The notes under the pieces: model-generated
Seen by the model: the letters and a program-made list of their open reading frames with translations, nothing else
The model's database searches: none
Told to the model about the DNA's origin: nothing
Shown here: piece after piece, positions 26,923 to 59,126 of the stretch
Position numbering within the stretch: the first letter of the stretch is position 1
How the letters are laid out: every line of letters starts with the position of its first letter
Origin: a virus
DNA: 64,000 nt
Reading direction: 5' to 3' (one strand)
Virus record (IMG/VR): IMGVR_UViG_3300027747_004524
Coordinates: 58,855 to 122,854 of that record
Made by a program: the position numbers and the translations under genes

Positions 26923-27444
26923 TCAATTATCCAACGACCAATGCATAAAAAGTTTGGTCGTCCACTGGTCAGGCAAACACACCAAATCATCCCGCCAATG
27001 TTCCATAGTGCGGCCCAGCATCATGGCACCATCACCATCTTCAACATTAAGAACAACTGTATTCCCCTTTTTGTCTATGCAATAAAGAGGCCATTCGTTT
27101 GTTAATGTAGACTTTAATGATATTGATAGGGTGTAATCTAACCCAACCCTATCGACATGTTTTTTTAATCGCCCGCCGTTGTAGTAAATTCTTCCGTAAG
27201 TATTAGCAGGCTTTATTTTTATTTGAAGCTTTTTTGCTATTTGTGGTGTTAAGGCTCTTAAATATTGTTCAAACTCCGGGCAGTTTCCTCCATATGATTC
27301 TCCGTAGTGATCGGAGGCACCGCTCTCATGCTTCAGCATGTTTTCATTCTTCATCCGAAAAAGAATGTCCGTAAAATGCTGACAGATAGAAGGAGGTAAT
27401 ATGCCTTTTACATAAACGTAACCAAGATCGCTAAAGTGCTGCAT
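26923..27444 (-). CDS. 2OG-Fe(II) oxygenase
   Basis: RIYYNGG.LKKHVDR (HxD), GDG...G...HWR (distal His plus Arg). Confidence 0.85.
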   Translation of the reverse strand: MQHFSDLGYVYVKGILPPSICQHFTDILFRMKNENMLKHESGASDHYGESYGGNCPEFEQYLRALTPQIAKKLQIKIKPANTYGRIYYNGGRLKKHVDRVGLDYTLSISLKSTLTNEWPLYCIDKKGNTVVLNVEDGDGAMMLGRTMEHWRDDLVCLPDQWTTKLFMHWSLDN

Positions 27445-27466
27445 GTTGGTCTCATGATAAATTAAA

Positions 27467-27538
27467 TGGGACGTGAGGGAATCGAACCCCCGACCAAAAG
27501 ATATGAGTCTGTCTCACAGTTTCTCCTTTTGGCGTCCA
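27467..27538 (-). pseudogene. Degenerate tRNA(CAU)-like RNA
   Basis: Minus strand ...ACAGACTCATATCTTTTGGTC-GGGGG-TTCGATT-CCCTC-ACGTCCCA; T-arm intact, anticodon loop one nt short, D-arm absent. Confidence 0.65.
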
Positions 27539-27542
27539 CAAC

Positions 27543-27570
27543 ATTATATGCAAAAATCTTTTTTTTTCAA
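27543..27570 (-). promoter_or_regulatory. Sigma70-like promoter for the tRNA-like RNA
   Basis: Minus strand TTGAAA-16-TATAAT ending just upstream of 27538. Confidence 0.6.
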
Positions 27571-27620
27571 CGTAGCTCAGTTGGTTATTATTTTTTGATT
27601 AGACCATACTATATAAAAGT

Positions 27621-28187
27621 ATGGAATACGATAAGTTAAAGGGTTATCTTGATAAGAACATGACTCTAAGGCAAATTTCAATCGAAAGCAAAAAATGTCT
27701 TGCTTCTGTTCGTTATTGGATGAAAAAACATGGGTTTAAACCTAATTTTGCGAACTTTAAGGGAGGCTATAAACCTGGTCAAAAAATAATTGGCAATGAC
27801 AGATATTGTCCTTCTTGCAAAGTTTATAGAAACATAAACGATTTTTACTCAAGAAGGAAAACTAACTGCACGGGCTACTGTAAGACTTGTATATCTAAAA
27901 AGACTACTGAACGACAAAGAAAAATTAAGAAGGAGATGGTCGAATACAAAGGGGGCAAATGTCAAAACCCGAAGTGCTCCACGCCAGGAGGATATAGTCG
28001 TTCAATAAATGGTTTGGACTTTCATCATATAGATCCTTTGAAAAAAGAATTTAGTATTTCTCAAATAAGGCTTACTAAGATGAACAAAAAAATTAAAAAA
28101 GAGTTGGATAAATGTATTTTGCTTTGTGCCAACTGCCATAGAGAAAGACATGAAGAGCTGCTTCTTGAAAGAAAAAAAAGCACCTGA
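27621..28187 (+). CDS. Free-standing HNH (homing-type) endonuclease
   Basis: N-terminal HTH-like segment, CPSC/CKTC zinc finger, GGKC...LDFHHIDP..K.F.I...ELDKCILLCANCHRE.H. Confidence 0.85.
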   Translation: MEYDKLKGYLDKNMTLRQISIESKKCLASVRYWMKKHGFKPNFANFKGGYKPGQKIIGNDRYCPSCKVYRNINDFYSRRKTNCTGYCKTCISKKTTERQRKIKKEMVEYKGGKCQNPKCSTPGGYSRSINGLDFHHIDPLKKEFSISQIRLTKMNKKIKKELDKCILLCANCHRERHEELLLERKKST

Positions 28188-28193
28188 AAACAG

Positions 28194-28478
28194 TCCGAGA
28201 GGTGGGGCACGATCCCACAACCCACAGATTATGCAATCCACTTCGGCTTTCGCCGCCAGAACTTCTTCTGTTCGTGGTCTGGACTATGCCTTCACCTTTG
28301 TTGTTGCCAACTTTAGGTGGGTGATTATAGTCTCTACACGTTCCCTTTCGGGCTTCGCTCGGCGTTGGGTCGTCCTTTTGAGACAGGCCGTTCACCGAAT
28401 TTACACCTGACTAACCACCCGTTTCCAGATGGCCGACCCGTAAAAGTCTGTTGCTCTAACCAATTGAGCTACTCTCGG
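28194..28478 (-). tRNA. Intron-containing tRNA(CAU), probably tRNA-Ile2; exons 28478-28445 and 28233-28194; no encoded CCA
   Basis: Spliced form CCGAGAG-TA-GCTC AATTGGTTA GAGC-A-ACAGA CT|CAT AA TCTGT-GGGTT-GTGGG ATCGTGC CCCAC-CTCTCGG-A; all four stems pair. Confidence 0.9.
28234..28444 (-). ncRNA. Self-splicing group I intron (211 nt, no ORF)
   Basis: P1 GACU/GGUC with a U.G pair at U33; P AAATTCGGTGAA; Q AACGCCGAGC; R GTAGAGACTATA; S AAGGCATAGTCC; GNRA loops in P2, P6, P8 and P9; terminal omega-G. Confidence 0.9.
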
Positions 28479-28485
28479 AATGTTT

Positions 28486-29145
28486 TCAGACGCTCTTTTG
28501 TGTGATCACCTCTTCAACCAATGACTCAATTTTTTTCTTTGCAAACTTTTCCAAAGACAGTTCGTTTTTTGCCATCTCTGGAATTATTCTTTGACGAACC
28601 CAATTTCTTCTGCTGCCCTTGACTGCAGAGTTGGTTTCGTCCTCTACAATATAATGCTTTAATTTGTTTCTGTCAACGTACTGTTGAAAATCTTTTTTCT
28701 TCGTTAGAAGAAATGGGTGCACAACCTTATAGTTTGGAAATAGACTCCACAAGGGAATTGGTTCGTGATCTGGTTTCCCCCTGAAACAGTTCAGAAGGTA
28801 GCTTTCAATCCAATCGTTTAAGTGGTGGGCCGTTATTAGAATTCCTTCTTCCTCTTTGAAAATAGTAGAATAGAATTCAACTCTAGCTCTTCTGCATTCT
28901 GATTCTGTGTTTAGATTATTGCCATATCCACAAATTCCTTTTATGTGAAATTCTTCGCAAAACTTTTGGAAATTTTTTTCCATTTCATCGTTTTGTTCTC
29001 TGATTTTGTGGTTAAAGTGTACTCCAACAACCTTGTATCCTTTCCACATTAACCAATGCAAAGATGCTAAACTGTCTACTCCCATAGAAACTGTAACGTA
29101 AACAGTTTTTTCTTTGTTGAGTAATTGCTTTATGATCTTTATCAT
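28486..29145 (-). CDS. tilS: tRNA(Ile)-lysidine synthetase, catalytic domain only
   Basis: PP-loop SMGVDS, HFNHKIR, RR.R..F, TAHHLND..ES.LLN, HPFL, DETN, RN.VR..IIP. Confidence 0.85.
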   Translation of the reverse strand: MIKIIKQLLNKEKTVYVTVSMGVDSLASLHWLMWKGYKVVGVHFNHKIREQNDEMEKNFQKFCEEFHIKGICGYGNNLNTESECRRARVEFYSTIFKEEEGILITAHHLNDWIESYLLNCFRGKPDHEPIPLWSLFPNYKVVHPFLLTKKKDFQQYVDRNKLKHYIVEDETNSAVKGSRRNWVRQRIIPEMAKNELSLEKFAKKKIESLVEEVITQKSV

Positions 29146-29194
29146 GTTCCTATTTCCGAATTTTGAATTTGCCTAATTTCTTTTTGGGCAAGGC

Positions 29195-29223
29195 TTTACA
29201 TCTTGAAACCTACGTGTTATCAT
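29195..29223 (+). promoter_or_regulatory. Sigma70-like promoter for clpX
   Basis: TTTACA-17-TATCAT with TG extension. Confidence 0.6.
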
Positions 29224-29282
29224 TAGGTTGTGTAGGCTAAGTATGGGCTTAACAAGTACAAAATTTAGAATAGGAGATCTAA

Positions 29283-30554
29283 ATGGCTAAGAAAACTATG
29301 AGTTGCGACTTTTGCGGCAAACCAAACAAGGCGGTAGGAACTTTAATCGAATCACCTTCTTTTGACAAGGAGGTAAACGGAAGACCAAAGGGAACTAATT
29401 TTTTCATCTGCTATGGTTGCGTTGAATTAGCTCATAAGATGGCAAGACAAGACAACAAGAAACAAAACAACCAGCAGAAGCAAACAGAGACTTCGGCCTA
29501 TCCTGTTTCTCCTAATCCCAAAAAAGTTGTTGAGTTTCTTGATCAATATATTATTGGACAAGATTTGGCAAAGAAAACTCTTGCCGTTTCTGTTTGTAAT
29601 CATTATAAGCGTCTTATTTCTCAAGAAGACGATGATGTTAACATTGAAAAGTCTAACGTGCTTCTAATTGGCCCAACCGGATCGGGTAAAACTCTTTTTG
29701 CAAAAACCTTAGCAAAATATTTGAACGTTCCTTTTGCGATTGGAGACGCTACAACCCTAACAGAAGCGGGCTATGTGGGGGAAGACGTAGAGAACCTTGT
29801 TCTAAAGCTTCTTCATGCTTCTGACTTTGATGTTGAGGCCGCACAGAGAGGCATCATTTACATAGACGAAATAGACAAGATAGGCAGAACAAACAATAAC
29901 GTCTCCATCACTAGAGACGTTTCTGGCGAAGGTGTTCAACAGTCTTTGTTGAAGTTGGTAGAAGGAACTGTTTGCAATGTCCCTCCAGCAGGAGGCAGAA
30001 AGCATCCCGAACAACAGTTTATTCATGTTGATACCACCAACATTCTGTTTATCTGTGGTGGTACATTTACTGGTTTAAATGACATAATCAAGAAGAGAAT
30101 TGGTAAAACCGCTATTGGGTTTAACAACTCCTCTTCGGATAATATCGAAGACAAAGATCTCTCATTTCAGGTTGTTGAAGAAGACTTGGTTGAGTTTGGC
30201 CTGATTCCAGAGTTGATTGGTAGGCTTCCTTGCATCACTCCCTTGAAGCAGTTTGACATTGAATCTCTTGTTAGCGTTTTGTGTGATCCGAAGGACTCTC
30301 TAATCATGCAATACAAGAAGCTGTTTAGGTTTGATAACGTGGAATTAGACTTCACAAGGGAAGCTTTAGAGGCTATTGCCAAAAATGCCCTTGATAAGGG
30401 CACTGGAGCTCGCGGCCTTAGAAGTTCTATGGAGAAAATACTCCTTGAACTGATGTACGAAGCCTCCGATCATAGGGGAGAATCGATTGTGATAACCGAT
30501 GGCGTCGTTTTAGGTAAGGAAAAGCCTTGTTTTGCCAAAAATAAGGCTGCATAA
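29283..30554 (+). CDS. clpX: ATP-dependent Clp protease ATP-binding subunit ClpX
   Basis: C4 zinc finger, [47 protein letters not shown] loop, GARGLR. Confidence 0.97.
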
Positions 30555-53190: not shown

Positions 53191-54450
53191 TTGCAAAATT
53201 TTAAATTATTTTTTGAGAGCTTATCTGAGGCTGCTGATTTAAAAAGCCAAATACTTGAGAGTTCCTTTTTAAAAGAAATACGGTATATGGGCGGAAGGCT
53301 CTACTTCGTTGGGGGGGCTACAAGAGACCATTATCTTGGCACCCCCTCAAAAGATATTGACGTAATTATATCAAACATTCCCGCAGACCAACTTACAAAC
53401 ATACTGAAAAAGCATGGAACAGTGAGTAGTGTTGGAGAATCTTTTGGAGTTATAAAGTTTATTCCTAATGAGTTTAAAGTTAGTGAGCCTATAGACATAG
53501 CTTTACCAAGAAAAGAACGTCCTATGACGGCTGAGGAGAGAGAAAACTATAAGCAAAAATATGGAAAATACCCCTCTGCCTACCAGGCTTTTACCGTAGA
53601 ACCAGACCACTTTTTAAAGATAGAAGACGATCTACTTAGAAGAGACTTTACGATAAACGCTATCGCCCACGATCATCTTGGGAATAGTGTGGATCCTCAT
53701 GGAGGAGTGAGAGACATTAAAAACAAAGTAATTAGAATGGTCTCTGCGAAAAACTTCTCAGAAGATCCTCTTAGGATGCTAAGAGGCGTACAGTTTGCTT
53801 CACGCTTTGGATTCAAGATTGAGTCTAAAACATTCGATGCTATCAAAAAAAATGCTTCTCTCATAAATGGCATACCAGGCGAACGCATACTCGTTGAACT
53901 AGAAAAGATAGTTAAAAAAGGAAATCAACTTTTGGGTGCAAAATTGCTTTGTGAAACAAGCTTATGGCAGGAGATATCAAGCTTATCTTGTAAAGACCAT
54001 AGCAAGGATGCCGCTTTATTTGAAGAAAGCGAAAAGTCTAAAACCGTAGCAGAGTTTTTGTTTTTAATGATGTTCAATGTCGCATCCTCTCAAGAAGCTT
54101 CTTCTTTGATTAAGAGATTAAAATGCGAAATCATCACCGAGAAGCAGATAAAAGGATTGTATTACGCATGGGAGAGTGATGACAATCCTCATTTAGTTGT
54201 TTTTAATCTTAACAGAATTCACCCAACATGTTTGCGGTTACTTGTTCTACCCCAGCATGTTAAGAATTCTATTTCTTCTGATATGCCTAAAAGTGTTAAA
54301 GACCTACAAATAAACGGCAGCGATTTAATGAGCTTGGGCTATAAAGGAGAAGACATATCAAGTGCTTTTAGTAATATTTTAAGGCAAATATTTAATGGAT
54401 CTATAGGTAACTCAAAAGAAGAAATAATTGACTTTCTTCAAAGCAATTAA
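53191..54450 (+). CDS. CCA-adding/poly(A) polymerase-family tRNA nucleotidyltransferase
   Basis: VGGATRD, KDIDV, RRDFTINA, EDPLRMLR..QFASRFGF, ERI..EL.K; N-terminal FKLFFESLSE tag; TTG start with AGGAG RBS. Confidence 0.9.
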   Translation: MQNFKLFFESLSEAADLKSQILESSFLKEIRYMGGRLYFVGGATRDHYLGTPSKDIDVIISNIPADQLTNILKKHGTVSSVGESFGVIKFIPNEFKVSEPIDIALPRKERPMTAEERENYKQKYGKYPSAYQAFTVEPDHFLKIEDDLLRRDFTINAIAHDHLGNSVDPHGGVRDIKNKVIRMVSAKNFSEDPLRMLRGVQFASRFGFKIESKTFDAIKKNASLINGIPGERILVELEKIVKKGNQLLGAKLLCETSLWQEISSLSCKDHSKDAALFEESEKSKTVAEFLFLMMFNVASSQEASSLIKRLKCEIITEKQIKGLYYAWESDDNPHLVVFNLNRIHPTCLRLLVLPQHVKNSISSDMPKSVKDLQINGSDLMSLGYKGEDISSAFSNILRQIFNGSIGNSKEEIIDFLQSN

Positions 54451-58490: not shown

Positions 58491-59126
58491 ATGTCTAACA
58501 CAATCAGAGACTTAAGTGAGCTTTTAACACTTTTTGCGGACAACAACTCGAACCAGATTACCGCACAAGATTTAAGAGACCTTATAGTCACAACAGATTC
58601 CTGGAGATTTAGTGGCGACTACAATGATTTGGAAAACCTTCCCACTCTTGGAACCTTAAGCTCACAAAATGCTAACAATGTAAATATAACTGGTGGCAAT
58701 CTAAGCAACATAACAGTATCGGGTTCTTTCAATACAGGTTTAGATCTTTATCCTTATAGCTTTTCTACATCAAAGCTAAGTATTCGTTCTGCTATAGTAG
58801 ACCTTAAACAGATTGCTGAGAATGAAATATTCACGGTGCCAGCAAGTCATATTTTTTTGATTGATAGCATGGAGATCCTAACCACCATTATATCAGGAAC
58901 GAATAATACACTACAAGCAAGGTTTGGAAACAGTATAGATCCACAGGAATATTATCTTCCTTCACAGATCAACAACTTTAATTCTGGAGACAGACATATA
59001 ATTGAGGTTGCTCAAAATGCTTCTCTTTCTGGCACCACAATAACTTTTGGAGTTGTAACCCCATCATCAGCAGACTACCATGAAGGCTTTGGTTTAATTC
59101 ACGGAAGTTTGATAAAAGTTATCTAA
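58491..59126 (+). CDS. Virion-associated protein, short paralog of the fibre C-terminus
   Basis: LGTLSSQNANNVNITGG and a C-terminal domain align by eye with the end of 59228-63055. Confidence 0.75.
   Translation: MSNTIRDLSELLTLFADNNSNQITAQDLRDLIVTTDSWRFSGDYNDLENLPTLGTLSSQNANNVNITGGNLSNITVSGSFNTGLDLYPYSFSTSKLSIRSAIVDLKQIAENEIFTVPASHIFLIDSMEILTTIISGTNNTLQARFGNSIDPQEYYLPSQINNFNSGDRHIIEVAQNASLSGTTITFGVVTPSSADYHEGFGLIHGSLIKVI

Follow-up and report, generated by a model that had tools for sequence, protein, structure and literature searches.

The tRNA-lysidine synthetase TilS is known from two bacterial architectures, Type II (Aquifex aeolicus; structures 1WY5, 2E21 and 2E89) and Type I (E. coli, 1NI5; Geobacillus, 3A2K). 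In the published view every TilS has at least one domain appended to its catalytic domain; every characterised TilS carries at least the first C-terminal domain (CTD1), and deletion of the second (CTD2) strongly cuts activity (PMC11947777). Components of the same pathway have already been published from phages and viruses. A TilS has been reported from the Pseudomonas jumbo phages PA5oct and MIJ3 (PMC6892783) and from chloroviruses, where AUA is much commoner in the virus than in its host and the same rationale as that considered below was proposed (PMC7589089). All T4-like phages carry a putative lysidine-type tRNA(CAU) (PMC1524935), and a vibriophage tRNA(CAU) carries lysidine at C34 (k2C34), as cited in PMC13191261. 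Here we analyse a stretch of virus DNA of 64,000 nucleotides (the window; 38% G+C), which is the last 64 kb (positions 58855–122854) of the 122,854-bp IMG/VR record IMGVR_UViG_3300027747_004524 (G000). It contains a gene for a minimal TilS followed directly by an intron-split gene for a tRNA(CAU). As in the T4-like phages and the vibriophage, the CAU tRNA would be meant to read AUA after lysidinylation; those phages, however, rely on the host TilS, whereas the window phage brings its own enzyme and its tRNA gene is interrupted by an intron. From the sequence comparisons that follow, we consider it probable that the two genes form a phage-borne module for AUA decoding, consisting of an enzyme and its substrate.

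The enzyme gene occupies 28486–29145 on the minus strand, with its TGA stop at 28488–28486, and encodes a one-domain TilS-like PP-loop protein of 219 amino acids that corresponds to the N-terminal domain only. The open reading frame (ORF) product matches Pfam PF01171 (6.7e-27) and scores 101.1 bits on the NCBIfam model TIGR02432 (‘lysidine_TilS_N’; cutoff 93.6), with only ∼20 bits on models for TtcA, MnmA, TtuA and QueC. A profile of 29 family members searched against the PDB found the TilS structures 1wy5 (9e-17), 1ni5 (1.5e-16) and 3a2k (4e-12), with TtuA at 2e-4. When an AlphaFold2 (AF2) model of the protein (predicted local distance difference test score, pLDDT, 91.5) was submitted to Foldseek, the top six matches were all TilS, led by 2e21, 2e89 and 1wy5 (E 2e-11 to 6e-10; query-normalised TM-score 0.75–0.80), at 22–29% sequence identity to the bacterial enzymes. 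The TilS motifs outside the PP-loop (HxxH, TAHHxxDxxE, RP/HPF, DxxN and RNxxR) are present and align to 1wy5, 1ni5 and 3a2k. In an alignment of 139 sequences (133 short and 6 long TilS), the residues common to both forms were S20, G22, D24, S25, H43, H46, E81, R85, R88, H107 and H108, together with D111, E114, N119, G123, P144, F145, K150, D169, N172, R180, N181, R184 and P189. Judged by sequence and predicted fold, the protein groups with TilS and not with TtcA or TtuA. The first-pass annotation of this locus had allowed that it might instead cluster with TtcA or other PP-loop families; the TIGR02432, PDB and fold matches point to TilS. The chemistry is presumed to be that of the bacterial enzymes, in which ATP activation of C34 is followed by attack of lysine.

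The PP-loop itself, at residues 20–25, reads SMGVDS: relative to SGGxDS, Met stands in place of the first G, whereas the S, the second G, the D and the final S are unchanged. This difference from SGGxDS is one of two observations favouring the notion that the pair is not what it seems, either because the enzyme is a PP-loop protein that is inactive or has been re-purposed, or because the RNA gene is a tRNA-Lys(UUU) with an intron at 37/38, a notion to which we give hardly any credence. With regard to the protein, SMG is kept in 117 of 120 close homologs, along with every other TilS signature residue. At the same site in the alignment of 133 short homologs we found G in 82, M in 18, A in 14 and S in 13, and also C; the two patterns together argue for purifying selection and against inactivity. 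Thus, SMGVDS, which the first-pass annotation had correctly read but had linked to a possible specialisation of the enzyme, is on the sequence evidence a tolerated subclade trait at a variable site under purifying selection, with no sign of decay, and the wider short family mostly retains SGGxDS. Re-purposing as a TtcA-like Fe-S thiolase is unlikely, as the cysteines that are invariant in the subclade (C63, C84 and C120) are replaced by A, L or F in other members of the short family, and a CxxC motif is lacking.

The second respect in which the protein differs from both bacterial types is its length. The chain extends no further than the post-catalytic helices, and neither CTD1 (PF09179) nor CTD2 (PF11734) gave a match in the protein, in G000 or in the phage records of five relatives (G001–G005, two of them ∼90% complete). 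This bears out the earlier remark that the usual C-terminal domains are missing, and also speaks against their supply in trans from these genomes. The domain-less architecture therefore belongs to neither Type I nor Type II as published. When 1.8 billion cluster representatives were searched with HMMER without restriction, 13,247 hits were returned, of which nearly all of the best 150 were 200–250 amino acids long; proteins of 299–434 amino acids, the size of cellular TilS, turned up mainly near E ∼1e-19. Only one family member was found among 185,579 species genomes, on a 6.6-kb contig of a metagenome-assembled genome labelled Pseudomonadales. The tRNA is present there too, and the contig is probably a binned piece of phage. 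On these searches, the clade of ∼200–250-amino-acid enzymes is large and almost absent from cellular genomes.

The short form has been seen before, in PA5oct and MIJ3, but without discussion as a class. The PA5oct protein is 203 amino acids long and 28% identical to that of the window. Neither the PA5oct/MIJ3 gene nor the chlorovirus gene has a tRNA(CAU) as its neighbour, and the publications left the function of these genes open, whereas in the SMG subclade of the window the tRNA is immediately downstream. Our literature search turned up no recognition of a domain-less TilS class, of its conserved coupling to tRNA(CAU) or of group I introns interrupting phage tRNA genes of this kind. We tentatively propose, while regarding the case as somewhat short of even, that the 200–250-amino-acid phage proteins make up a third, domain-less class of active lysidine synthetase that reads its substrate via the anticodon arm alone and travels with its own tRNA(CAU) as a portable decoding module. 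If this were true, the module would not depend on the host TilS, which reads the acceptor stem, and AUA would be usable as the main isoleucine codon in huge phages whatever the AUA capacity of the host.

The tRNA gene begins 7 nt after the TilS stop on the same (minus) strand, with base C1 at 28478. Its 5' exon (28445–28478, minus strand; 34 nt) runs from C1 to U33, and its 3' exon (28194–28233, minus strand; 40 nt) from C34 to the discriminator A73, with CCA not encoded. Between U33 and C34 lies an intron of 211 nt without an ORF (28234–28444, minus strand). Spliced in silico, the exons form a 74-nt cloverleaf for which ARAGORN gives the anticodon CAU. Without introns, standard ARAGORN gives no tRNA call at this gene; in its intron mode it calls tRNA-Lys(ttt), i(38,211), with the intron at 37/38, and this is the second observation favouring the inactive-protein or tRNA-Lys(UUU) alternative. 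Such an intron would have to end in A, and it is contradicted base for base by an intronless ortholog, L001:4665–4739, on the syntenic contig of the closest relative. The latter reads ...ACAGACTCATAATCTGT..., follows a 72%-identical TilS by 7 nt, scores 66.2 bits on RF00005 and matches the window exons bar a few substitutions; moving the intron gap by one base either way produces a mismatch. Because L001 reads through uninterrupted, the junction is fixed as CU/CAUAA (slashes here and below mark splice junctions) and the anticodon as CAU. The arrangement described in the first-pass annotation, a 219-amino-acid TilS domain, 7 nt and a tRNA with the spliced anticodon CAU on the same strand, is thus present as stated. 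Miscalls of the same sort were made by ARAGORN on the relatives (‘tRNA-Stop tta’, ‘Gln ttg’, ‘Leu taa’ and ‘Leu caa’).

Bacterial initiator tRNAs are recognised by an unpaired 1:72 position, three G-C pairs in the anticodon stem and a pair other than Y11-R24. The spliced tRNA has a paired C1-G72, C11-G24 and an anticodon stem (ACAGA/UCUGU) without a GGG/CCC run, and its loop is CUCAUAA, with A37, A38 and A73. By these sequence features it is of the elongator type and not an initiator, in agreement with the first-pass annotation. Searches for its isotype gave a mixed picture. Among E. coli sequences, blastn ranks the tRNA-Ile with a CAT anticodon first for the L001 tRNA, although the match is weak (E = 7); against phages the matches are a mixture of Lys, Met, Ile and Arg tRNAs and thus uninformative. 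A further indication comes from locus L017, where the tRNA(CAU) next to TilS begins with G1. Its acceptor stem, GGGGCGU/ACGCCCU including G1-U72, is that of the tRNA-Ile(UAU) of G002 and G005, and this identity hints at recognition by the same isoleucyl-tRNA synthetase (IleRS). The T-loop is also unusual: it reads AUCGUGC in the window (28201–28220, minus strand) and AUCGUUC in L001 (4711–4730), with A54/U58 swapped for the usual U54/A58, and the remaining TilS-linked tRNAs all retain UUCRA.

We then compared 19 distinct related loci, in which TilS is 47–72% identical to that of the window, judging the tRNA absent if none was found within 2.5 kb. A same-strand tRNA(CAU) follows TilS in 15 of the 19. 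The gap is no more than 25 nt in 11 of these, at 5–25 nt or as an overlap with the TilS stop (the window, L001, L006, L007, L010, L011, L014, L018, L021, L023 and L067), and 283–984 nt in the other four (L019, L017, L020 and L003/L013). At four loci (L016, L022, L024 and L025) there was no tRNA(CAU) within 2.5 kb of TilS. Since the order recurs so often, the arrangement is not due to chance, and the search for synteny that the first-pass annotation had put forward as a check has borne it out. In three larger relatives that are 79–91% complete (G001, G002 and G005), no CAU tRNA was detected apart from the gene adjacent to TilS. The remaining tRNAs of these three genomes almost all have U at the wobble position and hence mainly read A-ending codons.

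The first alternative to be weighed against these data is that the tRNA is an ordinary elongator tRNA-Met, that the mini-TilS serves another substrate, such as a host tRNA-Ile2 whose supply or modification is limiting, and that the two genes are adjacent only as parts of a shared ‘translation island’. The loop CUCAUAA, A73 and the elongator features would suit tRNA-Met equally well, and tRNA-Met is a common cargo of phages. Moreover, more distant phage TilS genes (PA5oct, LR756502 and RsoM2USA) have no adjacent tRNA, and G002 and G005 encode a separate tRNA-Ile(UAU). Against this, the 5–25 nt linkage holds down to 47% TilS identity and across two unrelated tRNA backbones, a reader of AUG would be the odd one out in a tRNA set aimed at A-ending codons, and ATA is the top isoleucine codon (see below). 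We therefore regard the tRNA-Met alternative as unlikely.

The two tRNA(CAU) backbones, one of the C1-G72 type and one of the G1 type, adjoin closely related TilS proteins. We looked for co-evolution of TilS with the tRNA backbone and found no signal, as C1-type and G1-type neighbours are intermixed on the TilS tree. The suggestion of the first-pass annotation that the enzyme may be specialised for its cognate tRNA is not sustained by this pattern. One TilS clade beside two different backbones could even be taken to mean that the domain-less enzyme does not discriminate at all, and lysidinylates any CAU tRNA including the elongator and initiator tRNA-Met of the host, reprogramming or crippling host translation besides supplying AUA readers; the domains that it lacks, CTD1 and CTD2, are those thought to reject tRNA-Met (PMC11947777). 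However, the phage itself needs AUG decoding and initiation (702 ATG codons in 120 ORFs), and a TilS with CTD2 deleted still rejected tRNA-Met (PMC11947777). Indiscriminate modification is, in our judgement, very unlikely.

Codon usage provides the demand for such a module. In 120 long ORFs of G000, ATA is the commonest isoleucine codon, accounting for 962 of 2066 (46.6%), or 28.2 per thousand codons, and exceeding ATG. The share expected from the composition of fourfold sites is only 33.6%. In G000, A-ending codons are in general over-used beyond composition, with ATA making up 47% of Ile and AGA 55% of Arg codons. In alignments with L001 orthologs, ATA is found opposite ATA, ATT or ATC and never opposite ATG; therefore ATA means isoleucine in these phages. 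Such demand alone suffices to explain the module. It also makes superfluous the proposal that the pair is a spare part for counter-defence, replacing host tRNA-Ile2 that has been destroyed by an anticodon nuclease. Rescue of infection from tRNA-cleaving defences by phage tRNAs is known (PMC10264068, PMC11464382), but neither the window nor the related loci give any sign of such a nuclease or of evading changes in the loop, which is the canonical CUCAUAA; we think this proposal highly improbable.

Taken together, the identity of TilS, the synteny at 47–72% identity, the preference for ATA among isoleucine codons and the meaning of ATA as isoleucine provide comparative support for the core of the first-pass interpretation, an enzyme-plus-substrate pair for AUA decoding. 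The pathway that we envisage would start with expression of the one-domain TilS and the CAU tRNA directly downstream, probably on one transcript, given the 7-nt spacing and a terminator scan that found no terminator-like site in 27400–29400; on this basis the transcriptional fusion stated in the first-pass annotation is no more than probable. The 211-nt intron between U33 and C34 would then remove itself by two transesterifications, using the U(-1)-G wobble in P1 and the terminal G. RNase P and 3' trimming would release the tRNA, and CCA would be added, possibly by the CCA-adding enzyme that the phage itself encodes. The mini-TilS would use ATP to activate C2 of C34 and join lysine to it, giving lysidine; as the 3' exon begins with C34, this modification must follow splicing. 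Finally, IleRS of the host would charge the tRNA with isoleucine, allowing it to read AUA, the most used isoleucine codon of the phage. The host must supply IleRS, RNase P and 3' trimming, so that the earlier description of the cassette as ‘self-contained’ was overstated, and ARAGORN moreover miscalls its tRNA gene.

Several points weigh against AUA decoding by this pair. The first is that a domain-less enzyme may be weak or may need a partner, since characterised TilS enzymes all have CTD1 and deletion of CTD2 costs activity. The Met at the first PP-loop glycine may affect ATP binding, although the clade tolerates several residues (G, M, A, S or C) at that site. By sequence, the loop CUCAUAA and A73 fit tRNA-Ile2 and elongator tRNA-Met alike. 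Besides the TilS and tRNA(CAU) pair, G002 (L033, G002:320775–320865) and G005 (L045, G005:144305–144395) encode the tRNA-Ile(UAU), which could read AUA alone; the CAU tRNA would then not be strictly required, and each genome would have two independent AUA readers. The inventory of tRNAs in G000, in which Pro(UGG), Asn(GUU), Thr(UGU) and the CAU tRNA were detected, is incomplete because the record is only ∼25% of a genome (CheckV). Finally, a near-consensus sigma-70-like promoter (TTGACA-17 nt-TATATT, 11/12 matches) is found within the last third of the TilS ORF, at 28676–28648 on the minus strand, ∼170 nt before the tRNA, and could drive the tRNA independently.

The locus bears on several fields. 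In the published view, the appended domains of TilS distinguish tRNA-Ile2 from tRNA-Met, and a natural clade of catalytic-domain-only proteins beside their presumed substrate would test how little protein is needed for discrimination. The pair may also be a compact, orthogonal enzyme–tRNA combination for work on codon reassignment. As for phage biology, huge phages could bring with them both a tRNA and the step that modifies it, in keeping with an unusual preference for AUA. For intron biology, phage tRNA genes would be added to the sites of group I introns; a review in 2014 had no such case from phages, the phage introns known by then being all in protein-coding genes (PMC3984707).

The intron was assigned to group I from its Rfam match, from homologous introns and from its absence in L001. 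The match to RF00028 is modest (26.2 bits, E 7.9e-5, under the gathering score of 50), and was obtained only on a 371-nt stretch and missed on a 3-kb stretch. A consensus fold of six aligned homologous introns contains 48 pairs, 21 of which have compensatory changes. In P1 of the window intron, the exon GACU pairs with the intron GGUC, giving a U(-1)-G wobble; the intron ends in ...GGAUUG, the last base being G, and its precise removal leaves the 74-nt cloverleaf collinear with the intronless L001. Near-identical introns are also inserted at 33/34 in the L003/L013 tRNA(CAU), in an unrelated phage tRNA(CAU) (L065:1216–1414) and in a phage tRNA-Leu(UAA) (L064:10174–10375); the anticodons of L064 and L065 are miscalled by ARAGORN as caa and taa. 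A second, related class of 191 nt lies between U36 and A37 of the TilS-linked tRNA(CAU) in L011:3207–3397 (L011/L012) and L020:3876–4066. P1 differs between the classes, being (G)ACU/GGU(C) at 33/34 and CAU/GUG at 36/37. Intron-bearing and intronless loci are sisters on the TilS tree (the window and L001; L020 and L019), and hence the introns are sporadic, as expected of mobile elements. From the sequences, the introns look like patchy, mobile add-ons that are putatively self-splicing, and not like regulators.

Both insertion sites have bacterial counterparts of subgroup IC3. The cyanobacterial tRNA-fMet intron fMet.2Ug is found at the same loop position 2 as the window intron (CU/...g/CAUAA), and the Azoarcus pre-tRNA-Ile intron Ile2.5Ug at the same position 5 as those of L011 and L020 (CUCAU/...g/AA) (Williams 2020, doi 10.1101/2020.01.27.920355). 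U(-1) and a terminal G are common to all of them, none contains an ORF, and we infer that the window intron belongs to the same subgroup. The host gene here is a phage elongator-type tRNA(CAU), however, and not a bacterial initiator.

A free-standing HNH endonuclease gene (27621–28187, plus strand; phrog_2255, 2.5e-27; Pfam HNH weak) converges on the 3' end of the tRNA gene, leaving a gap of 6 nt. The pairing of an HNH gene with an adjoining intron-bearing tRNA gene, the intron itself being without an ORF, is reminiscent of free-standing phage homing endonucleases (PMC2988022, PMC3984707), but in L017, L019 and L006 homologs of the HNH gene (44–59% identical) likewise converge on the tRNA(CAU) gene although it has no intron. 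In addition, the HNH of the intron-bearing L003 is unrelated. The possibility that the intron and the HNH gene form a collaborative homing unit is therefore not supported. As the homologs adjoin intronless genes, the target of the HNH enzyme may be the tRNA region itself and not the intron site, and the HNH gene looks like a mobile add-on, not a regulator.

Beyond the HNH gene is what remains of a second tRNA(CAU), of the G1 type (27467–27510, minus strand). It comprises the 3' two-thirds, lacking one nucleotide of the anticodon loop, while the 5' half is missing; it matches the TilS-adjacent tRNA(CAU) of L023 in 45 of 46 columns, the sole difference being a 1-nt gap. The region gives a partial match to the Rfam tmRNA/tRNA-like models (17.5 bits). 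An inverted D-arm-like piece (ACGTAGCTCAGTTGGTTA) lies at 27570–27587 on the plus strand, just upstream of the HNH start. Together, the two pieces look like a second tRNA gene that was broken and partly inverted beside the endonuclease gene. The tRNA-like stretch at 27467–27545 was rejected as a functional RNA: there is no exact copy in IMG/VR, and its fold is no better than that of shuffled sequences (z = -0.61).

The window carries phage genes, among them those for a tail fibre, a helicase, a sigma factor and ClpX. The order sigma70, GGACT, ClpX and then TilS and glyoxalase is shared with a metagenome contig of 444 kb, the closest relative to show it, and the record is therefore a piece of a huge phage. 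The CCA-adding enzyme (tRNA nucleotidyltransferase) gene lies at 53191–54450 on the plus strand (phrog_2244, 4.3e-54), and its product is likely an accessory for tRNAs without an encoded CCA. Among the relatives, L017 has a phage-encoded tmRNA gene (L017:273–603; RF00023, 75.9 bits) ∼900 nt upstream of its TilS. ARAGORN also reported short anticodon-loop insertions of 64, 51 and 27 nt in a tRNA-Asn, a tRNA-Asp and a tRNA-Gly, respectively (L044, L059 and L062; G005 and G003), which are too short for group I introns.

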